Shown here: positions 23,835 through 30,298 of the stretch, piece after piece
How the letters are laid out: every line of letters begins with the position of its first letter
Numbering within the stretch: the stretch's first letter is position 1
Origin: a virus
Lineage: Duplodnaviria > Heunggongvirae > Uroviricota > Caudoviricetes
Virus record (IMG/VR): IMGVR_UViG_2617270998_000002
Length of the DNA stretch: 33,212 nucleotides
Strand: one strand, 5' to 3'
Notes under the pieces: generated by a model
Told to the model about the DNA's origin: nothing
Databases searched by the model: none
Seen by the model: only the letters and a program-made list of their open reading frames with translations
Position numbers and translations under genes: made by a program

Positions 23835-24314
23835 TTATCTGAGGCATTGTTCACGAATGTATAGCTGTGCCCCTTCCAGTTGTTTTTGCATTATTGTCAG
23901 TCGCGCTCTGAGGGTGAAATAATCCCGCTCAGCGGTGTCTTCCAGTCGGGGGGCGGCTGCATTATCCACGCCGGAGGCGGCGGTGCCTTCACGCACGGAC
24001 GAACAGACTGCCTTGATGCGCAACCGACGATGACCAGCGGCAACATCATCACGCAAAGCATCATTTTCAGCCTTCGCATCAGCTAACTCCTTCAGGTATT
24101 TTGCATCGAGTGCAGCAACATCACGCTGGCGTATCTGCATGTCAGTAATGATTGCGGTCGCCTGGTTGAGTTTTTCCGTCACATTATCGCGTTGCGCTTT
24201 GTAGGTAATGGCATTATCACGGTAATGATTAACAGCCCATGACAGGCAGACGATGATGCAGATAACCAGAGCATAAATAATCGCGGCAACTCTGCTCACT
24301 GCTCTATCCCCCAA
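23835..24314 (-). CDS. Rz: i-spanin Rz
   Basis: ORF with N-terminal TM ([35 protein letters not shown]) and coiled-coil ...[30 protein letters not shown]...; lambda Rz-like. Confidence 0.85.
23897..24079 (-). CDS. Rz1: o-spanin Rz1 (embedded in Rz, +1 frame)
   Basis: 60-aa [23 protein letters not shown]... with lipobox (VGC) and proline-rich ...[26 protein letters not shown]; wholly within Rz. Confidence 0.8.
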
Positions 24315-24829
24315 CAGGCTAATGCGCTCTCCTGATCACGACGAATAACCTGACCGTAACAGTTATTTGAACGAAGGCGGCAATCGCGCCCCCTGTCCTT
24401 AATCCACCAGCGAATCGCCTCGCAGGCACCTTTACGATCACCTGCATTCAGCCGCTTATAAAATGTCGACGGAAAACACTTACCGGGGCCAATGTTATAG
24501 GGACAAAATGACGCGATACCCGCTTTCTGGGGTTCGGTCAGCGGCACTTTAATATTGCGCTCCACCCATGCCAGCGCCTTATCGCGTTCAATGGCATTAA
24601 CCTGAGCGCATTTTTCCTTCGTCAGTTTCATGCCCGGAATAACAGGTTTACCATCCACCATCGTGGCACCACGACAGATGGTCCATATGCCGGAACCATC
24701 GCGGTATGCCGTAGTGTGGTTACCCTCTTTTTCATCCAGAAACTGGTCAAGTATTTGAGGAGCAGACGCGCCTGCAGCAATCAGCGCCAGAACCGCAGCT
24801 GACAGGCCGTATTTGATTTTTGCGCTCAT
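24296..24829 (-). CDS. SAR endolysin (T4-lysozyme-like muramidase with N-terminal signal-anchor-release domain)
   Basis: N-terminal weakly hydrophobic Gly/Ala-rich segment ([18 protein letters not shown]) then a Glu...Asp...Thr triad context ([22 protein letters not shown]); P21 R-like. Confidence 0.9.
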
Positions 24830-24884
24830 GGATATTTATCAGGATGCTACCAATGAAAGATACTGGAAAGCCAACTGCAAAAAG

Positions 24885-25199
24885 CTAACAACCTGTAATC
24901 GAGTTATCAGAACTGTTAATTTTTATGGTATACCGCGCCTCTGAACAGGGGCGCGTTTCTGGCAACAGCTCGTCCCCTTCACATAACCCGGCAGCAACAT
25001 CCAGGAAGACCTGTCTGATGCTCCTTCTGGCTGCTGCCTCATAAAACTCCAGCGCGGCACCTTCAACACGGTCCAGCGAGATGTCCAGGTCAAAAATTTC
25101 ACCGTCAAAGCGTTTTTTGTCCCGTAACGCTAAAGTTACCGTAACTTTATTCTCAAAATTGCGGATCCCTTTCACAATCAGTTCATATTTTTGAGTCAT
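24885..25199 (-). CDS. Small protein inserted between holin and endolysin (YdfR-like, DUF1327-type), unknown function
   Basis: 104-aa ORF with GGAGAG ribosome binding site; same slot as ydfR between essQ and rrrQ in Qin; family assignment from memory. Confidence 0.45.
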   Translation of the reverse strand: MTQKYELIVKGIRNFENKVTVTLALRDKKRFDGEIFDLDISLDRVEGAALEFYEAAARRSIRQVFLDVAAGLCEGDELLPETRPCSEARYTIKINSSDNSITGC

Positions 25200-25203
25200 T
25201 GAA

Positions 25204-25419
25204 TTACTCTCCCCGTGCAGCCTTACGCTTGTCTTCTTTAATCTTGAAATAAAGGTTTGTCAGGTACGTCAGCAGGCCAAATACCAGGCTACCCAGCACA
25301 CCTATTGCTGCCCACTGTGAGGGCGTGACTTTATCGAGCAGCTGTAAAAACCAGTAGCCAGCACTGCCTGCGGAGGTGCCGTAGGCAATGCCTGTTGAAA
25401 TTTTGTCCATGGATTTCAT
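25204..25419 (-). CDS. Pinholin (S21-like) with dual start motif
   Basis: [71 protein letters not shown] (71 aa); Met1 and Met4 give antiholin and holin starts; strong GGAGGTGA ribosome binding site; the track ORF extends further upstream (25476). Confidence 0.85.
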
Positions 25420-25522
25420 AGCCTCACCTCCGCACGGAACGGATGGCATAGTTATTATGTGTAGGCTTCCAGACACATCAATCAGAGCCTTAATTGATAT
25501 ATATGCTGGAGACGATGCAATA

Positions 25523-25545
25523 TAAAAAGCTCGCCGTAGCGAGCT
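25523..25545 (-). terminator. Rho-independent terminator downstream of the TolA-like lipoprotein genes
   Basis: Minus strand AGCTCGC-tacg-GCGAGCT followed by TTTTTAT, between lipoprotein B stop (25671) and the pinholin start. Confidence 0.55.
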
Positions 25546-25670
25546 AATAAAATGTATTTCTCTGATATTATGTTTATTTGTATTAGCTCAGACTTGACAT
25601 CACAGGTTTCGTATATAGAACATCATCAAATCTGTCAGTTTGCTATGAATGAGATATAGTAATTGAAGAG

Positions 25671-26066
25671 CTAACCTCGCATGTCAAAGCCAGATTTCTG
25701 AAAATCTCTGTAGACTTCCGGATTGTTGAAGGCCGGAAATTTGGCTTTACGAGCTGCGGACTTTATCGCTTCGCAATAGGCTTTATCACCGTTACTGGTA
25801 GATATTTTTAACGCCGTGCCATCCTGAGAGAATTCCATATGCAACCTGCATTTTTTCCCTTTCCAGTTATGCGGCTCATCAAGTTTGGCATTAATTGCAG
25901 CTCTGATTCCCCGCGCTTGCGCCCCCCATTCATCCTGATCATCCCAGCGTCCTGAACTGCAACTACCTGTAGCAGTAGTTTTGTGGCAATCTGAAGGGTG
26001 TAAAGGTGTGCATCCCGCAACAAAACCGACCCAAAAAGTCAACATAACGATTTTCTTTAATCCCAC
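25671..26066 (-). CDS. Lipoprotein with TolA domain III-like C-terminal domain (copy B)
   Basis: Signal peptide plus lipobox (MLTFWVGFVAGC, +2 Thr); C-terminus ...GKKCRLHMEFSQDGTALKISTSNGDKAYCEAIKSAARKAKFPAFNNPEVYRDFQKSGFDM shares the pattern of TolA domain III and of copy A. Confidence 0.6.
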   Translation of the reverse strand: MGLKKIVMLTFWVGFVAGCTPLHPSDCHKTTATGSCSSGRWDDQDEWGAQARGIRAAINAKLDEPHNWKGKKCRLHMEFSQDGTALKISTSNGDKAYCEAIKSAARKAKFPAFNNPEVYRDFQKSGFDMRG

Positions 26067-26216
26067 TTCTTGCTCCTCAATCCATTAAAATCTCAGCAAT
26101 AGTAGTTGTTACGTCCGCCACTGGCTCAGAGCTGACTATCCGCTAAATTTAGCTCAGTGCCGTAGTTGTGTCAGAACAAACCTAAGCCGAAACCGTTTAT
26201 TACAAAACAATAAATA

Positions 26217-26645
26217 TCAGGGTTTAAAATCCAGCACCCCATTTTGAAATACTTTATATACTTCCGGCGAAGGGGGGGCAGGTATATCAGCATTCTTTAT
26301 CGCATTCATCGCTTCACGACATAAATCGAGGTCTCCACTTTCTCTTTTAACCTCCAGTAGAAGGCCATTCGGGGCCATATGCATTCTCAGTGTACACTCT
26401 TTTCCTGAATACTTACTCGCATCCCCGAACTGTTTTTCGATGGCGCTCTTGATTTGATGGGCATACAGACGGATATCCTCACTAACATCAGAAGTACGTT
26501 CAGATGAACTCACATACTGTGTCTCTATTGCTTTATCGGAGTAATATGATGTACGGTCATGATAATTTGTCGATACAGCATCAGTGCACCCGATAATAAT
26601 CCCACTAATAATCAACGTAAGAATTGATGCGCTACGAAAACCCAT
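26217..26645 (-). CDS. Lipoprotein with TolA domain III-like C-terminal domain (copy A)
   Basis: Signal peptide plus lipobox (ILTLIISGIIIGC, +2 Thr); C-terminus QIKSAIEKQFGDASKYSGKECTLRMHMAPNGLLLEVKRESGDLDLCREAMNAIKNADIPAPPSPEVYKVFQNGVLDFKP closely parallels the E. coli TolA C-terminus as recalled (...GKTCTLRIKLAPDGMLLDIK...IPKPPSQAVYEVFKNAPLDFKP); GAGGAAAA ribosome binding site. Confidence 0.65.
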   Translation of the reverse strand: MGFRSASILTLIISGIIIGCTDAVSTNYHDRTSYYSDKAIETQYVSSSERTSDVSEDIRLYAHQIKSAIEKQFGDASKYSGKECTLRMHMAPNGLLLEVKRESGDLDLCREAMNAIKNADIPAPPSPEVYKVFQNGVLDFKP

Positions 26646-27178
26646 TTTTCCTCACATATGTCATATAGTAAAGGATTATATATACCGTTGTTTTGGACGC
26701 TCAAACAGCGAATCAGATCAAATAAAACGCACATTTGTTAACATTTACACAAAGTCTGCGTGGGATATTCTGAAAGAATATCCATAATGTGGAGAGAATC
26801 TATTGAAGTGCATGGTGCCGGGTGCCTCCCGGTGAATTCAGTACCAGCACCTGAATCCGCGATTATCCCATATACCTACTCGCTGATTGCCCCTCCGCAC
26901 AGGGGGATTCACCATGCCAGTTTCTTTTAACAAACTCCCCGCAAACCAGAGAACAGTCAACCGCCTGAATTGTGAAGTATTTAAAAATTTCTCCCGCTAA
27001 CTGATACCCGGCTAACAGTCTGGCGTTTTCTTTTTCAGCAACGGGAAAGCAACAACCACCACCCCCGCCACCAGCACACCGTCAGCCAGTACTGACATTA
27101 TCCGGCTGCTGCAATGCCATTCACAAAAACAGTAAGCAATCACTTTTTACCGTAACAGGTGATAATCCAGATATGTAT

Positions 27179-27505
27179 CTACCCCAGATGAGTAATCCGA
27201 AGTTCATCCATACCACAGGTCCTGGCTATTCTGTTGTACTCCTGAACAAGAGCAAATAATTCTGAATTAGCAACCATGAACTCATCGCAAACCCTCTGTA
27301 TAGCATCACTATTCAGAATAATAACGTCTCTTCCCGAAAGACGATCAGGAGCACAGAACAAAACTGTCAAACGGCTGAAGGCCTTTGCTCGTGCTGCATT
27401 GACTATATCAATACGCTGCCTAAGGATGAAACACCCCGACGCCTCATCAATATTCACTCTACCCACACCATATGAATGATAAATATTTAATGCTGAAAAA
27501 ACCAT
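27179..27505 (-). CDS. Hypothetical protein (moron slot downstream of the tRNAs)
   Basis: Track ORF 27179..27532 starts at TTG; first ATG at 27505 gives a 108-aa product (MVFSALNIYHSYGVGRVNIDEASGCFILRQRIDIV...); no recognisable family; AT-rich. Confidence 0.35.
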   Translation of the reverse strand: MVFSALNIYHSYGVGRVNIDEASGCFILRQRIDIVNAARAKAFSRLTVLFCAPDRLSGRDVIILNSDAIQRVCDEFMVANSELFALVQEYNRIARTCGMDELRITHLG

Positions 27506-27642
27506 TAGACCGTATAACAAACACTCAATCAATACTTAACAGAACTTTTATTTTTGACAAACATATAATATTTTCAACAATATCCTGAGCCAGGTATATT
27601 CCAGTATAAGGCTCTGCCGGAAGGAATCTGGAAGAATGAATA

Positions 27643-27719
27643 TGGCGCGCTGTACTGGATTCGAACCAGTGACCGATTGCTTAGAAGGCAATTGCTCTGT
27701 CCGGCTGAGCTAACAACGC
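27643..27719 (-). tRNA. tRNA-Arg (anticodon UCU)
   Basis: Minus strand GCGTTGTTAGCTCAGCCGGACAGAGCAATTGCCTTCTAAGCAATCGGTCACTGGTTCGAATCCAGTACAGCGCGCCA; anticodon loop CTTCTAA; T-loop GGTTCGAATCC; encoded CCA; resembles argU. Confidence 0.85.
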
Positions 27720-27752
27720 TGAATACCGATAATGGACCGCCATCGGGGACCC

Positions 27753-27762
27753 GCCCCCCCCC
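27753..27762. repeat. Homopolymeric C10 (G10 on the minus strand) tract between the two tRNA genes
   Basis: Plus strand ...ggggacccgCCCCCCCCCCgcacc...; ten consecutive C. Confidence 0.9.
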
Positions 27763-27824
27763 CGCACCAACAACCCTGTTATCGTGTCGTCTGCTCTTCC
27801 TGATAAGCTCATGGCGGTTTGTGA

Positions 27825-27900
27825 TGGTGGCCCTTGCTGGATTTGAACCAGCGACCTGGCGATTATGAGTCGCTCGCTCTCACCACTGAGCTAAAGGACC
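27825..27900 (-). tRNA. tRNA with CAU anticodon, Ile2 (lysidine) type, ileX/ileZ-like
   Basis: Minus strand GGTCCTTTAGCTCAGTGGTGAGAGCGAGCGACTCATAATCGCCAGGTCGCTGGTTCAAATCCAGCAAGGGCCACCA; anticodon loop CTCATAA; very similar to E. coli ileX as recalled; encoded CCA. Confidence 0.8.
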
Positions 27901-27938
27901 GGGGGCAGAATAATAACGGTCCGTAATTAATTCCGCAA

Positions 27939-27961
27939 TAAAAAACCCGCTCGGTGGCGGG
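27939..27961 (-). terminator. tR'-like intrinsic terminator downstream of the late promoter
   Basis: Minus strand CCCGC-caccga-GCGGG followed by TTTTTTAT, about 45-65 nt downstream of the candidate PR' -10. Confidence 0.55.
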
Positions 27962-28010
27962 TTGTAGAAACTCTTCTAACGTCAGGCATAAAACGCCCAT
28001 CGTTATGACG

Positions 28011-28038
28011 AATTTACCACAGATTCCGGAAAAATCAA
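28011..28038 (-). promoter_or_regulatory. PR'-like late promoter (Q-dependent antitermination site expected here)
   Basis: Minus strand TTGATT (-35, complement of 28033-28038), 16-nt spacer, TAAATT (-10, complement of 28011-28016), immediately 3' of the Q-like gene stop. Confidence 0.45.
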
Positions 28039-28043
28039 CCTTG

Positions 28044-28865
28044 TTACCTAGTTACCTTTTTTAACTGCCGCTCAGCCCATGCTTCTTCAATATCAAACCG
28101 GGTCACCAGCGCATCATAGAATTTCTTAACTGTTTTTTCCCATGACGCGCGTGTTATCTGGTTTGTCACCTCGCATATAGCATTAAATGCCTCCGTTGAT
28201 GGTAGTCTTTCATAGCCACGACCACCACAACGCTGGCAGTCTCTGATAACAGGCATACCACGTTTTACCGACTCTTCACGGTGAATGGCGACACCACGCC
28301 CACGGCAATCCTTACAGGCGGTGGAAACCTCACCCTTTCCGCCACACTCCGGACAGGCAACTTTTACCACCTCCCTGACTTTTTTCCATTCTTCCCAGTA
28401 AGACGGATACACACCTTTCGTACACTTTGCCCATACCGGCGGCTTACCATCCGGATACTGGACCTTGTTTGTAAAAACTACGCTTTCAATAAATTTTTCC
28501 CCATAGCAACAAGGGCACTGCTTTTTACTCGCTGCGCTGCGGGCATAATCCTCAAAAGCGTACGAAGCCATAATGCGCATCACTACCGGTTTTATTTCTG
28601 CCGGAAGTTTTCTCAACGCCACCACACGATCGCACCGACTGAGTGCATAATCTGCCAGTAATTCTGTTGCCCGCGCCCTGTCATTCATACTGATGCCCAT
28701 TTTCCCCAGGAACGCAGAAAACCCCATCTCAGCCCGATTCTGTGTCATGCCCTGCGCGGCCATCACATCAGTGATACTCAGCGCATCTTTTGACGTTGAG
28801 GCCGATGCATCGGTCAGGCAAGGGGATTTTGGGGAGTAGTATTTCGGTAAATCTTCCAGTTTCAT
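28044..28865 (-). CDS. Putative late-gene antiterminator Q (Q82/QuuQ-like, Zn-binding)
   Basis: 273-aa ORF with several CxxC motifs (CPCCYGEKF, CPECGGKG...CKDCRGRG, CQRCGGRG); lies after rusA and immediately before the PR'/tR'-like elements, tRNAs and lysis genes. Family assignment by position and motifs only. Confidence 0.55.
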   Translation of the reverse strand: MKLEDLPKYYSPKSPCLTDASASTSKDALSITDVMAAQGMTQNRAEMGFSAFLGKMGISMNDRARATELLADYALSRCDRVVALRKLPAEIKPVVMRIMASYAFEDYARSAASKKQCPCCYGEKFIESVVFTNKVQYPDGKPPVWAKCTKGVYPSYWEEWKKVREVVKVACPECGGKGEVSTACKDCRGRGVAIHREESVKRGMPVIRDCQRCGGRGYERLPSTEAFNAICEVTNQITRASWEKTVKKFYDALVTRFDIEEAWAERQLKKVTR

Positions 28866-29239
28866 TTTTTGACCTGCTCTTCATGCATTATGGGGTAAAT
28901 CTTCACCCCCAGACGTCCACCAGATACTGGCTGACCACGAACGATATTGATTTCATCAAACTGCTCATCGTCCATTAACACTCCCGCATGCGTCAGCGCA
29001 TCCAGCGGTGCTTTCAGGATATTGTCCAGGTCGCGACGACGCTTATCCGGTGGCTCTGCAATCACCTTTATCGCCAGCCTTCCGGACAGGCTTAATTTCA
29101 GCCGCTGCTGGCGAACAATAAGCGCCACAGCCCGGCGATAACGCTTTCCCTCCTCCGAGATAAAATATGTGCTGCCACGGCGTCGCCAGTAAGTGTTCAC
29201 CGTCGGCGGGTAAGGTAAAACCAAATCTATGAGCATCAC
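28862..29239 (-). CDS. rusA: Holliday junction resolvase RusA
   Basis: 125-aa ORF MMLIDLVLPYPPTVNTYWRRRG...PDKRRRDLDNILKAPLDALTHAGVLMDDEQ; RusA-like conserved Asp cluster; overlaps the Q start by 4 nt. Confidence 0.85.
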   Translation of the reverse strand: MMLIDLVLPYPPTVNTYWRRRGSTYFISEEGKRYRRAVALIVRQQRLKLSLSGRLAIKVIAEPPDKRRRDLDNILKAPLDALTHAGVLMDDEQFDEINIVRGQPVSGGRLGVKIYPIMHEEQVKK

Positions 29240-29248
29240 TCACCTCTT

Positions 29249-30298
29249 TTACCCAAGCACGCCAGTTGCAAAGGCGTGATCAAGAAAACGAAAAATTAAA
29301 TCAACCTGAGAACCATGCTTTTCTTCGAACGCCAGAGGATCCGCATGAAGCTCGTTGTGATGCTCCCGACACAGCGGTAGCGTGAAAATATCGTGAGATT
29401 TTGTCCCCATTCCGCCCTGACCATGACCAATCAGGTGATGGGGATCGTCGGCTGGCTTACCACAACACGCACACGGCTGTGTCTTCACCCAGCGTGTGTA
29501 TTTCTCGTTAACCCAGCGGCGACGTTTAGGTCGTTTCATGAAAGATTCCGGAGACTCAGGATCAACGGCAATGCTGACCACCGTCTTTTCCTGTGGTGGG
29601 TTCTGTTGCTGGTGGGCGTGAGGCAGCGGCGCAAGATTTTTTGTGCGCTGTTTCAGTATGCTGGTGGCGGTCTGCTCTCCCGGTACGATGTCGCTTTCAC
29701 GGTACATTGAGCGGATTTTTTCCGCACGCAACCCCAGCGAACGACGTAATACCGCTTCCGGTAGCGCGTCCGCCACCTGATTGCGGACCGCCCACCAGGA
29801 TAATTCAGCCAGAGATAATTCACGCTCCTGCGTACCGCTTATTGCGTGACCGATGACGTCAATCATCCATGCTGACAGATTTTGATGAGCAAGTTGCTCG
29901 AGTGATTCGGATGTCTGGTCACGCAGCTGGTTGTCGCAGTGCCAGCACAACACCATTGCGCCGGTACCATAACGGTGAATAACGGTTTCGCTGTGATGAT
30001 AATCGCCGTGTGGCCACTGGCAGGATTTAATATGGCGCAACAGCCAGTCAGACAATGCACCAGCACCACCAGCAGCACGAATTACCCGTGCGTTACTGAA
30101 AAACGGCAGCAATGTTTTGTCTTCCACCAGCGGCTGGCGAACGGCAGGAACGACCCCGGACGGCAGATTACGCATGCTTTTCGGTTCCGGCTCCACCAGT
30201 ACCCGGGTATTGTGGAATACCGGCATGGATTCACGGCCCGGCTTAACGACCACCAGCCCGAGTTCCGGTACCAGAACAGGTCGAAGTAATACCCGCAC
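29249..30298 (-). CDS. YdfU-like phage protein (DUF968-type) with C-terminal HNH-like Cys/His cluster
   Basis: 349-aa ORF (same length as Qin YdfU as recalled); C-terminal CACCGKPADDPHHLIGHG...LCREHHNELH; nin-region position. Confidence 0.55.
   Translation of the reverse strand: MRVLLRPVLVPELGLVVVKPGRESMPVFHNTRVLVEPEPKSMRNLPSGVVPAVRQPLVEDKTLLPFFSNARVIRAAGGAGALSDWLLRHIKSCQWPHGDYHHSETVIHRYGTGAMVLCWHCDNQLRDQTSESLEQLAHQNLSAWMIDVIGHAISGTQERELSLAELSWWAVRNQVADALPEAVLRRSLGLRAEKIRSMYRESDIVPGEQTATSILKQRTKNLAPLPHAHQQQNPPQEKTVVSIAVDPESPESFMKRPKRRRWVNEKYTRWVKTQPCACCGKPADDPHHLIGHGQGGMGTKSHDIFTLPLCREHHNELHADPLAFEEKHGSQVDLIFRFLDHAFATGVLG

Follow-up and report, generated by a model that had tools for sequence, protein, structure and literature searches.

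Two Putative Lipoproteins with TolA Domain III in a Prophage Cassette of Escherichia coli: Candidate Decoys for Colicins and Filamentous Phages

Introduction

Why would a lambda-like prophage carry, just ahead of its lysis genes, two short genes that each resemble one domain of a host envelope protein? Group A colicins, related bacteriocins, and filamentous phages (Ff, If1, and CTXphi) use TolA domain III (TolAIII) as a common handle for entry. Natural colicin insensitivity is common and limits the use of colicins as narrow-spectrum antibiotics. The locus was first described in a prediction made from the sequence of viral record IMGVR_UViG_2617270998_000002 (hereafter the original prediction); the window is the whole stretch of DNA analyzed, 33,212 nucleotides. 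The prediction was aware of no characterized system of this kind, and none was found in the searchable literature, where short TolA proteins encoded by phages, plasmids, or chromosomes receive passing mentions but no functional study that we could find. One such mention places tolA on small plasmids and gives no role. An O157 soil transcriptome paper and a cefiderocol Tn-seq paper that name tolA were discarded, as both refer to the chromosomal gene. New here are the separate lineages of genes A and B, the prevalence of the pair, its relatives on plasmids and chromosomes, the pairing of TolAIII with a TonB C-domain in Klebsiella, and purifying selection.

The cassette and its setting

The cassette and the features around it are as follows.

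25456-26805, minus strand: whole moron cassette (promoter-like site, gene A, spacer, gene B, terminator), 1350 bp, delimited by comparison with phage PhiR49_2
26675-26704, minus strand: sigma-70 promoter-like site TTGAGC-18-TATAAT, 30-60 nt 5' of gene A (consensus match, 10/12)
26067-26216, minus strand: A-B spacer, 150 bp, without a terminator in a scan for signals
26146-26174, minus strand: weak promoter-like site in the A-B spacer, CTGACA-17-TAAATT (9/12)
25528-25545, minus strand: intrinsic-terminator-like hairpin AGCTCGC-TACG-GCGAGCT followed by TTTTT, between gene B and the holin gene (7 pairs, 5 GC, T run)
25204-25419, minus strand: holin gene (essD-type), first of the lysis cassette and immediately 3' of the terminator (ORF and RefSeq annotation of identical prophages)
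26756-26946, minus strand: STnc100 sRNA homologue, directly 5' of the promoter-like site of the cassette (Rfam RF02076)
27643-27719, minus strand: tRNA-Arg(tct), downstream of Q and tR' (RefSeq annotation of identical prophages and our own scan)
27825-27900, minus strand: tRNA-Met/Ile(cat), downstream of Q and tR' (same sources)
27944-27963, minus strand: tR', between Q and the tRNAs (scan for signals)

The cassette forms a discrete, AT-rich insert in a lambda-like E. coli prophage of the Qin/mEp460-like type, with Q and the tRNAs on one side and the holin gene on the other. Phage PhiR49_2 has 188 bp where the cassette has 1350 bp, and the sequences on either side (24948-25455 and 26806-26987) are homologous and 92-96% identical. 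GC content is 41.0% in the cassette versus 51.7% across the window, in agreement with the AT-richness noted originally, and the order of genes (Q, tR', tRNA-Met/Ile, tRNA-Arg, cassette, holin, YdfR, lysozyme, and Rz) confirms the predicted location between Q/tR'/tRNAs and the lysis cassette. The cassette is not a normal part of phage mEp460, as among 50,697 phage records only the derivative record mEp460_ev081 carries it. A comparison of UPEC strains reported a strain-specific, phage-associated segment of 1,355 bp with a "TolA protein + hypothetical protein" (PMC6854850).

The description of the locus as a classic moron holds for the insertion itself. A terminator-like hairpin is at 25528-25545 rather than at 25523-25545 as first given. 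Both it and the promoter-like site are consensus matches; the latter is the top promoter-like match in 24200-29500, within a scan around the cassette that found no enrichment over shuffles (12 sites versus 8.2 ± 3.2 expected). Genes A and B are probably cotranscribed, and gene B may have an additional transcription start of its own. The STnc100 match is full length (114 bits, gathering score 47; E 3e-25), with a 3' hairpin at 26763-26783.

Two putative lipoproteins with TolA domain III

Both minus-strand ORFs lie where the original prediction placed them.

26217-26645, minus strand: gene A, 142-aa putative lipoprotein with TolA domain III, stop codon included (ORF, Pfam, PDB, AF2/Foldseek)
26586-26645, minus strand: gene A signal peptide and lipobox (MGFRSASILTLIISGIIIGC; Cys20, +2 Thr), read from sequence, with Gly19 and Cys20 invariant in the family alignment
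26220-26495, minus strand: gene A TolAIII domain, residues 51-142 (AF2 pLDDT; residue alignment to TolA 334-421)
25671-26066, minus strand: gene B, 131-aa putative lipoprotein with diverged TolA domain III, stop codon included (ORF, Pfam, PDB, AF2/Foldseek)
26010-26066, minus strand: gene B signal peptide and lipobox (MGLKKIVMLTFWVGFVAGC; Cys19, +2 Thr), read from sequence
25941-26009, minus strand: gene B linker (mature residues TPLHPSDCHKTTATGSCSSGRWD...), with two extra Cys (family alignment)
25674-25940, minus strand: gene B TolAIII domain, residues 43-131 (pLDDT >90; Foldseek)

Pfam, PDB, and Foldseek agree that A and B carry TolA domain III, the likeness on which the original prediction was built. 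Against the TolA_C profile (PF06519; gathering cut-off of 25 bits), A scores 82.6 bits (E 2.4e-23) and B 56.2 bits (E 4e-15). Phmmer searches against E. coli TolAIII in the PDB yield E values of 5e-28 and 2e-9, respectively, with B ∼31% identical and A ∼60% identical (52 of 86 aligned residues); the TolA C-terminus given in the original prediction agrees with the PDB sequence. The AF2 model of A has a pLDDT of ∼90 over residues 51-142 and <50 over residues 1-50, and matches 2x9a_B with a TM score of 0.96 and an rmsd of 0.6 Å. The model of B matches 3qdp (TM 0.92, rmsd 1.1 Å), and its linker is of low confidence. For both models the top matches are all TolAIII, an alpha/beta fold with helices packed against a three-stranded sheet. 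Both retain the disulfide pair (C84/C109 in A, corresponding to C363-C388 of TolA, and C73/C98 in B); the Cys pair is invariant in the family alignment and the bond itself is predicted.

Conservation differs between the two proteins at elements used by TolA ligands. In A, strand β3 (L417, D418, F419, K420, and P421 in TolA numbering; LDFKP) is identical to that of TolA, so that the C-terminus reads VLDFKP versus PLDFKP, and 11 of 16 residues of helix α2 are identical (DIxxYAxQIKSAIE). The strand bound by colicin A (TolA 375-380) is mostly kept, LLEVKR in A versus LLDIKP in TolA, as is K396, while K368 is replaced by His. In B, identity to TolAIII is low at known ligand sites and the C-terminal strand is FDMRG (GFDMRG versus PLDFKP). 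By the strand-addition criteria for β3 (A415-K420; D418 and K420) taken from PMC4339652, β3 of both proteins is plausibly competent for strand addition, as neither has a Pro at D418 or K420.

Neither protein is a full TolA. Scores against NF007065 (107.8 for A and 55.8 for B) fall below its cut-off of 213; against TIGR02794 (cut-off 59.45), B also falls below with 48.5, and the 75.6 of A covers only profile positions 265-362. Both lack the inner-membrane helix that couples TolA to TolQ-TolR and the long helical domain II, and both are encoded outside the ybgC-tolQRA-tolB-pal-cpoB operon. In place of the missing parts, each has a predicted cleavable N-terminal lipoprotein signal and then a linker of about 23-30 residues for which disorder is predicted.

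The lipobox and Thr at +2 claimed for each protein are present (IIGC followed by T in A; VAGC followed by T in B), together with a positively charged n-region, a hydrophobic h-region, and the pattern [LVI][ASTVI][GAS]C. Every full-length family member has a lipobox, its Gly-Cys does not vary among 20 family members with 24-91% identity to A, and the lipobox of B is conserved in nearly all of the 120 homologues listed. Thr occupies +2 in both A and B; relatives have Ala, Thr, Ser, Gly, Val, or Lys there, but never Asp. By this rule there is no Lol-avoidance signal, and both proteins are predicted to be sorted to the outer membrane. Lol-sorted lipoproteins of E. coli normally face the periplasm, where TolA ligands appear, and the anchoring at the cell surface that was originally proposed does not fit this topology. 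Here and below, we infer lipidation, topology, ligand binding, and phenotype of A and B.

Gene A starts at an ATG preceded by GAGG, and in the genomes inspected RefSeq labels it a tolA pseudogene "missing N-terminus", which leaves it out of protein-based surveys. Gene B starts at a GTG preceded by GAGGAG; RefSeq places the start at an internal ATG (124 aa), with loss of the positively charged n-region. A PHROGs scan with A and B returned only phrog_5772 (unknown function; E 1e-62 and 1e-64) and weak families that are also of unknown function.

Relatives and selection

A and B were originally described as tandem paralogues, the second a diverged copy of the first. They are 29% identical, fall in separate clades, and have independent distributions, which rules out a recent tandem duplication; they belong to two lineages that also occur apart. 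The nearest match to gene A is TolA of the E. coli type (∼59-60%); a representative search, a tree, and pairwise identities revealed no closer donor. A homologue search with the domain of A alone recovered the A family only and no genuine TolA.

Among 5426 complete E. coli genomes, 888 (16%) have gene A, 1269 (23%) have gene B, and ∼14% have the A-B pair. In other lambdoid prophages, A-type variants are alone in the same slot between Q and S. B-type genes are directly after the nikA-nikB relaxase genes on I-complex conjugative plasmids and are also present on pO157. On chromosomes of Enterobacter, Citrobacter, and Klebsiella they occur singly, and their surroundings include varied housekeeping genes. 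In Klebsiella, ColRNAI plasmids encode a lipoprotein with TolA_C (85.8 bits) and a signal-peptide protein with TonB_C (42.5 bits) beside an operon for a colicin-E3-like bacteriocin and a lysis protein, so that both energizers of import have their heads copied there. Across plasmid and other prophage relatives, PF06519 scores range from 53 to 86 bits. Mrr/HEPN_AbiV and GmrSD/HEPN genes adjoin Enterobacter-type loci and are absent at four other chromosomal contexts; as only some chromosomal contexts have defense neighbors, association with defense islands was not used as evidence.

Both families are under purifying selection. The dN/dS is 0.24 for the domain of A and 0.04-0.12 for B versus homologues on plasmids and chromosomes; among B-type genes of Enterobacter, Citrobacter, Escherichia plasmids, and the prophage it is 0.03-0.12. 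The linker of B (CxPLHPSxCHKTTATGSCSSGRWDDQDEW) is nearly invariant across genera, with a dN/dS of ∼0.1 and saturated dS. It is therefore very improbable that the cassette is debris, that is, fragments of captured tolA decaying in a prophage, even though RefSeq flags A as incomplete and several truncated or fused variants are present in databases. Besides being under selection, both genes retain an intact frame preceded by a Shine-Dalgarno sequence, and both begin with a complete lipoprotein signal, which is absent from full-length TolA. Each gene is carried at ≥99% identity by 782 genomes, and at least 65 clusters (50% identity) share the short lipoprotein architecture.

Proposed decoys for Tol-dependent parasites

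We suggest, with a probability of roughly 45%, that A and B are periplasm-facing decoys, tethered to the outer membrane, that intercept Tol-dependent colicins and filamentous phages. The cassette would make two independent lipoproteins, each with a free TolAIII hung in the periplasm on a linker of 25-35 residues. Just below the outer membrane and ahead of energized TolA, these copies would catch the TolA-binding epitopes of parasites, namely those in the translocation domains of colicins of group A and related bacteriocins and in the g3p-N1 of pilus-specific filamentous phages. They may also bind the N-terminus of TolB, which is exploited by nuclease colicins. Such complexes, having no connection to TolQR, would be unproductive, and the lysogen would be tolerant. 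The identity and fold of TolAIII, the invariant lipobox Cys with a +2 residue that is never Asp, purifying selection and high prevalence, and the presence of A-type variants by themselves in the Q-to-S slot of other prophages all argue for decoys. The promoter-like site and terminator of the cassette, with stand-alone occurrence in many chromosomal contexts, suggest a gene that works on its own and is of use to the host.

Parasite ligands bind TolAIII at ∼1 µM. By comparison, the affinity between TolB and TolAIII is weak at ∼40 µM (PMC7391070). A modest amount of decoy could thus protect the cell without abolishing Tol-Pal function. Moreover, g3p-N1, colicin N, and TolB bind elements of β3 and helix α2 of TolAIII by strand addition (PMC4339652, PMC7391070), and the retention of β3 and most of helix α2 in A favors a decoy. 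Engineered periplasmic TolAIII, which is reported to give tolerance to colicins and phages (see below), is an experimental precedent. In the mirror-image experiment, sequestration of TolA by periplasmic pIII-N1 made cells resistant to colicin A and lowered phage uptake by 4 logs (PMC10424213). Against a decoy stands the replacement by His in A of K368, which in TolA makes a cation-pi contact with Tyr58 of colicin A, the colicin residue that a stable complex requires (PMC3365938).

Settings of relatives are consistent with decoys, being conjugative plasmids with I pili, bacteriocin plasmids that also encode a secreted TonB C-domain, and pO157. The I pili of I-complex plasmids are the receptor of filamentous phage If1, and PDB 2x9a, which is among the top structural matches of A, is the solved complex of If1 g3p with TolAIII. 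Were A and B to be decoys, they would constitute an unrecognized tolerance determinant that spreads horizontally, including on pO157 and I-complex resistance plasmids, and would offer an explanation of how hosts might be shielded from pilus-specific phages by the very plasmids that produce the pili.

More broadly, and only tentatively, prophages, conjugative and bacteriocin plasmids, and some chromosomes of Enterobacterales may encode a large, unrecognized class of "import-hub decoys". In this doubtful but possible generalization, tethered or secreted heads of TolA, and on some plasmids of TonB too, would soak up bacteriocin translocation epitopes and g3p in the periplasm, giving broad tolerance without mutation of essential Tol/Ton to roughly a quarter of sequenced E. 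coli. Having both A and B would widen the spectrum, and mimicry of a host receptor would be a new principle of defense. PADLOC has no model or match for A or B, so neither belongs to a catalogued defense system, which counts somewhat against decoys, as does the restriction of defense-gene neighbors to some chromosomal contexts.

Possible interference with Tol-Pal and the position of the cassette

The genes are in the path of the Q-antiterminated late transcript and immediately 5' of the holin gene, which would fit a role in the lytic cycle. A and B might sabotage Tol-Pal by capturing the N-terminus of TolB and/or CpoB at the outer membrane, such that energized TolA could not strip TolB from Pal. 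The outcome would be a controlled "tol" state, in which the outer membrane is weakened, vesicles form, and the periplasm leaks. In a prophage, this effect would be strongest late, upon Q-antiterminated transcription through the cassette into S-R-Rz, and would aid lysis and release of virions; on bacteriocin plasmids it would aid release of toxin. Overexpressed TolAIII, exported to the periplasm in soluble form, makes E. coli leaky and has been used for protein release (PMC6195910). Decoys with affinity for TolB should carry a similar cost to envelope integrity. Binding of TolB to the same β3 strand that is conserved in A, the operon for a bacteriocin and a lysis protein beside the Klebsiella plasmid copy, and the very strong conservation of B, as expected for a conserved host ligand such as TolB, also speak for interference.

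Nevertheless, we regard interference with Tol-Pal, the main rival to decoys, as rather unlikely. The cassette has its own promoter-like site, a terminator parts it from the lysis genes, and the phage already has a full set of holin, endolysin, and spanin. Most relatives are single chromosomal or plasmid genes without lysis genes nearby, where constitutive damage to the envelope would be costly, and the affinity of TolB for TolAIII is weak. If the proteins do tune Tol-Pal, they would be its first natural modulators, with consequences for release of vesicles, phages, and toxins.

A possible host partner for gene B

The low identity of B to TolAIII and its differing C-terminal strand count against decoys. 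Across genera, the extreme conservation of B and its Cys-rich linker is easier to reconcile with a conserved partner in the host than with an arms race against variable toxins. B-family proteins in particular could be accessory factors of envelope homeostasis, in which the TolAIII-like fold and the Cys-rich N-terminal segment bind a conserved component of the host envelope. Candidates for this partner are CpoB, Pal, peptidoglycan enzymes, or an outer-membrane protein; the benefit would concern stress or colonization and be unrelated to colicins or phages, and the prophage would carry the gene as cargo. The low dN/dS across genera, the near invariance of the linker, the low identity at known ligand sites, and the stand-alone occurrence of B-type genes in housekeeping contexts are consistent with such a factor. 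Conversely, no conserved partner gene is next to B, B is found repeatedly on mobile elements (a prophage moron, I-complex plasmids, and pO157), and in the cassette it is paired with A, a close mimic of TolAIII. On balance, a homeostatic role is improbable.

Comparison with known systems

Relative to E. coli TolAIII (PDB 1S62, 3QDP, 1TOL, and 2X9A), A and B share the fold and the disulfide pair, with β3 the same in A, and differ in sequence by ∼40% (A) and ∼70% (B) and in being encoded by a prophage cassette rather than the tol-pal operon. With a lipoprotein signal and short linker replacing the TolQR-coupled helix and domain II, they are predicted to hang from the outer rather than the inner membrane and cannot transmit proton-motive force. 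TolAIII engineered for the periplasm by fusion to a signal sequence is, to our knowledge, the only experimental model for such a protein, being likewise free in the periplasm and uncoupled from TolQR. It is artificial, soluble, and overexpressed, whereas A and B are natural, diverged, predicted to be lipid anchored, and presumably expressed at a low level from their own promoter. Periplasmic TolAIII reportedly makes cells tolerant to colicins and phages, in work attributed to Levengood-Freyermuth et al. in 1993 and to Wan & Baneyx in 1998. PMC6195910 cites both papers.

Exclusion by pIII of filamentous phages involves the same interaction, between g3p-N1 and TolAIII, and the same outcome as proposed for A and B, namely resistance to colicin A and to phage uptake. 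It is a mirror image without homology, as pIII masks TolA, the receptor of the host, and A and B would mask the ligand of the invader. Similarly, the analogy originally drawn to Cor and Llp holds in logic only. Llp of T5 and Cor of phi80/N15/HK022 are small outer-membrane lipoproteins of phages that, from a prophage or early in infection, protect against entry of others. They bind and plug FhuA, are not copies of a host domain, and have no sequence relationship to A or B, so that the action is reversed, with a receptor mimicked rather than blocked.

Other lambdoid morons (stxAB, nanS-p, and nmpC of DLP12) occupy the same slot between Q and S, 3' of Q/tR'/tRNAs and 5' of the holin gene. Their cargo is different, and unlike A and B none encodes a mimic of a host envelope protein. 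In other prophages, A-type variants adjoin a nanS-p-like esterase gene, an arrangement that resembles that of stx in Stx phages.

Genes A and B encode predicted lipoproteins with TolA domain III

The similarity of two minus-strand genes to TolA domain III (TolAIII), the C-terminal domain of host TolA that is bound by colicins, filamentous-phage g3p, and TolB, is real.

26217-26645, minus strand: copy A ORF (142 aa; ATG start, GAGG ahead)
25671-26066, minus strand: copy B ORF (131 aa; GTG start, GAGGAG ahead)

Both score well over the cut-off of 25 bits for Pfam TolA_C (PF06519; A, 82.6 bits; B, 56.2 bits), and in phmmer searches of the PDB, chains of E. coli TolA are the sole matches (E 5e-28 for A, residues 55-142; E 2e-9 for B). 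AlphaFold2 models the domain at a pLDDT of ~90 (residues 51-142 of A and 43-131 of B) behind a low-confidence N-terminal tail, and Foldseek aligns A with 2x9a_B (TM 0.96, rmsd 0.6 Å, 59% identity) and B with 3qdp (TM 0.92, rmsd 1.1 Å, 31% identity). Both disulfide cysteines of TolAIII are invariant in a 20-member alignment of the A and B families. The TolA C-terminus given in the original prediction matches the PDB sequence, and 52 of 86 aligned residues of E. coli TolAIII are identical in A. Neither protein is TolA in a functional sense. The TolQR-coupled membrane helix and long domain II of TolA are missing from both, their NF007065 equivalog scores (107.8 for A and 55.8 for B) are far under the cut-off of 213, and the genes are located outside the tol-pal operon.

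At each N-terminus, a short positively charged segment leads into hydrophobic residues and then a lipobox (A, IIGC|T; B, VAGC|T). The lipobox Gly-Cys is invariant in the 20 aligned members, which are 24-91% identical to copy A, and a lipobox is present in nearly all full-length proteins among ~160 homologues retrieved. The +2 residue is never Asp, so by the standard sorting rule these lipoproteins are predicted to be transferred to the outer membrane.

In RefSeq (PGAP), gene A is labeled a 261-bp pseudogene, "tolA, incomplete, missing N-terminus" (database loci L001 8818-9078 and L011 26917-27177), despite its intact and conserved ORF, and gene B starts at an internal ATG, with loss of the charged n-region. 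The unusual architecture misled the annotation in both cases, and gene A is therefore missing from many protein sets. Other database labels are "unknown function" (PHROG 5772) and "TolA C-terminal domain-containing protein" (RefSeq). PADLOC has no model for either gene, and a literature search for functional work on short TolAIII lipoprotein genes found only passing mention in two genomics papers. The novelty lies in the architecture and context of an already known domain, plausibly with a new role.

The cassette has the layout of a moron

A complete Qin/mEp460-like lambdoid prophage, tail fibre through flxA, makes up the window. Genes and signals along its minus strand are, in order, Q antiterminator, tR', tRNA-Met/Ile and tRNA-Arg, a DUF3927 ORF, STnc100, A, B, a hairpin, holin, YdfR, lysozyme, and Rz. 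PhiR49_2 has the same flanks (92-96% identity) with 188 bp in place of the 1350-bp cassette (25456-26805) that holds A and B. GC content is 41% in the cassette versus 51.7% in the window. This is a textbook moron layout, with a putative promoter and terminator recognized by consensus match only.

27944-27963, minus strand: tR'-like terminator
26675-26704, minus strand: sigma-70-like site TTGAGC-18-TATAAT, the best of the region, inside the cassette (consensus match only)
25528-25545, minus strand: terminator-like hairpin between B and holin (consensus match only)

The Q-antiterminated late transcript would run across the cassette. The position of the cassette just ahead of holin fits an alternative in which A and B titrate TolB on purpose, making the outer membrane weaker so as to aid lysis or release, and a leakiness phenotype is known for periplasmic TolAIII. 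However, the cassette has its own promoter-like site and a terminator-like hairpin, and many relatives are in nonlytic contexts; we regard this alternative as rather unlikely.

Among 50,697 phage records, the cassette is present in one, mEp460_ev081 (LR597641.1). Because no other record matched, the data suggest that the reference mEp460 genome lacks the cassette; the late region of mEp460_ev081 may have been picked up from a resident Qin-like prophage.

A and B are separate lineages under purifying selection

A and B are 29% identical and represent two lineages rather than a duplicated pair. The A family is limited to Escherichia and Shigella, adjoins E. coli-type TolA in a neighbor-joining tree, and has E. 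coli TolA as its best full-length match (~60%). Variant A genes (65-69% identity over their full length, ~80% in the domain) occur alone in the Q-to-S slot of other lambdoid prophages, where their neighbor is a nanS-p-like esterase gene, an arrangement also seen for stx.

The B family is a deep, separate, and widespread clade. Stand-alone chromosomal B-type genes are found in Enterobacter, Citrobacter, Klebsiella, and Serratia, with neighbors that differ by genus, and a B-type gene is on 611 E. coli/Shigella plasmids. In three of three I-complex conjugative plasmids inspected (IncK2/Z, IncI-gamma/K1; MPF_I), it is directly preceded by the relaxase genes nikA-nikB. On pO157-type plasmids, the gene adjoins a relaxase remnant and toxB; this holds for pO157 Sakai, in which its label is "hypothetical protein."

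B-type genes at I-complex and pO157-type plasmid loci: L024 5965-6396, L025 7001-7432, L026 4001-4432; L017 and L023 5965-6396

Of 5426 complete E. coli genomes, 888 have gene A and 1269 have gene B. In the class of at least 99% identity, each is in 782 genomes, corresponding to the linked pair, and the 80-90% class of B is almost wholly plasmid-borne.

Some Enterobacter-type chromosomes (L003-L010) have B-type genes beside Mrr_cat and HEPN_AbiV, or GmrSD and HEPN; in Citrobacter, Klebsiella, Serratia, and one metagenomic contig, the gene is flanked by ordinary metabolic genes. B-type genes are therefore not consistently associated with defence islands.

Purifying selection acts on both genes. 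Relative to variant A, dN/dS of A is 0.36 for the whole gene (domain, 0.24; linker, 0.59); for B it is 0.12 relative to the pO157 copy and 0.04-0.05 relative to Enterobacter chromosomal copies. That the genes are debris is contradicted by these data and by their prevalence, and is highly improbable. The B linker (CxPLHPSxCHKTTATGSCSSGRWDDQDEW) is almost invariant across genera (dN/dS ~0.1) and may itself have a function. The extreme conservation of B suggests an alternative, a conserved host partner with no relation to invaders, which we consider improbable.

The mature N-terminus of B (25941-26009) has two extra cysteines, in a region of low AlphaFold confidence.

Some relatives adjoin a bacteriocin operon

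Short lipoprotein TolAIII genes are a large unrecognized family. Among 1.84 billion representative proteins, a profile search matched 625; in the best 150, 98 are at most 190 aa and 65 have a lipobox. Named members are from Rahnella, Serratia, Erwinia, and Dryocola, all with automatic "TolA" labels only. About 650 Klebsiella plasmids have lipoprotein TolAIII genes that are more distantly related. In 10-kb ColRNAI plasmids with an operon for a colicin-E3-like bacteriocin, immunity, and lysis, TolA_C and TonB_C genes adjoin, back to back.

L018 4905-5638: lipoprotein TolA_C and secreted TonB_C pair (K. pneumoniae plasmid NZ_CP031718, 10,060 bp)

The TolA_C protein (123 aa, 85.8 bits) has the lipobox LLLTAC|K, and the TonB_C protein (121 aa, 42.5 bits) has a signal peptide and a start codon that overlaps the TolA_C stop. 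A bacteriocin operon thus has, as neighbors, copies of the head domains of TolA and TonB, the two import energisers.

A and B are predicted decoys for TolAIII ligands

The N1 domain of g3p (Ff, If1), colicin N, and the TolB N-terminus bind by strand addition to TolAIII beta3 (415-420) with contact to helix alpha2; for colicin A, strand addition is at beta2 (375-380), on the opposite side; and affinities are ~1 µM for parasite ligands and ~40 µM for TolB (PMC4339652, PMC3365938, PMC7391070). In copy A, LDFKP is identical to TolA, 11 of 16 alpha2 residues are kept, and the colicin A strand is mostly kept (LLEVKR versus LLDIKP), as is K396; K368 of TolA is His. In copy B, the fold and the residues that form the strands are retained, with little surface identity to TolAIII.

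We tentatively predict, with a probability of roughly 0.45, that A and B are periplasm-facing decoys, tethered to the outer membrane, that confer tolerance. They would catch incoming colicin translocation domains and g3p just under the outer membrane in complexes that could not be energised, and collateral damage would be kept small by the difference in affinity between parasite ligands and TolB. Soluble periplasmic TolAIII reportedly confers tolerance to colicins and phage. I pili are the receptor of phage If1. The genomic context of relatives fits the decoy reading: B-type genes are on I-complex plasmids, the complex of If1 g3p with TolAIII has been solved (2x9a), and the plasmids with TolA_C and TonB_C point to bacteriocin warfare. 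Sequestration of TolA by periplasmic pIII-N1 causes resistance to colicin A and a 4-log fall in phage uptake (PMC10424213). Soluble periplasmic TolAIII makes cells leaky (PMC6195910, with reference to Levengood-Freyermuth 1993 and Wan & Baneyx 1998). Decoy activity and TolB titration are not mutually exclusive.

The original prediction is borne out in its observations, bar small details of coordinates and start codons. Of its interpretation, computation upholds the domain assignment, the lipoprotein prediction, and the reading as a moron, and comparative context lends circumstantial support to the decoy idea; a surface anchor is unlikely, and "diverged paralogue" is misleading for B. The genes are common, mobile, and directly testable, and bear on colicin and phage biology.

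Sequences upstream of the cassette

A full-length STnc100 homologue is directly upstream of the promoter-like site, with a perfect 9-nt hairpin at its 3' end (26763-26783). The stretch at 26806-26987 is kept in lambdoid phages without the cassette, and a shorter piece (~26809-26900) in Stx phages. A second segment missing from PhiR49_2 (26988-27629) lies between the tRNAs and STnc100.

26756-26946, minus strand: STnc100 sRNA homologue (Rfam RF02076, 114 bits, gathering 47, E 3e-25)
27012-27143: DUF3927 ORF, within 26988-27629
27179-27532: unannotated 117-aa ORF (TTG start), within 26988-27629
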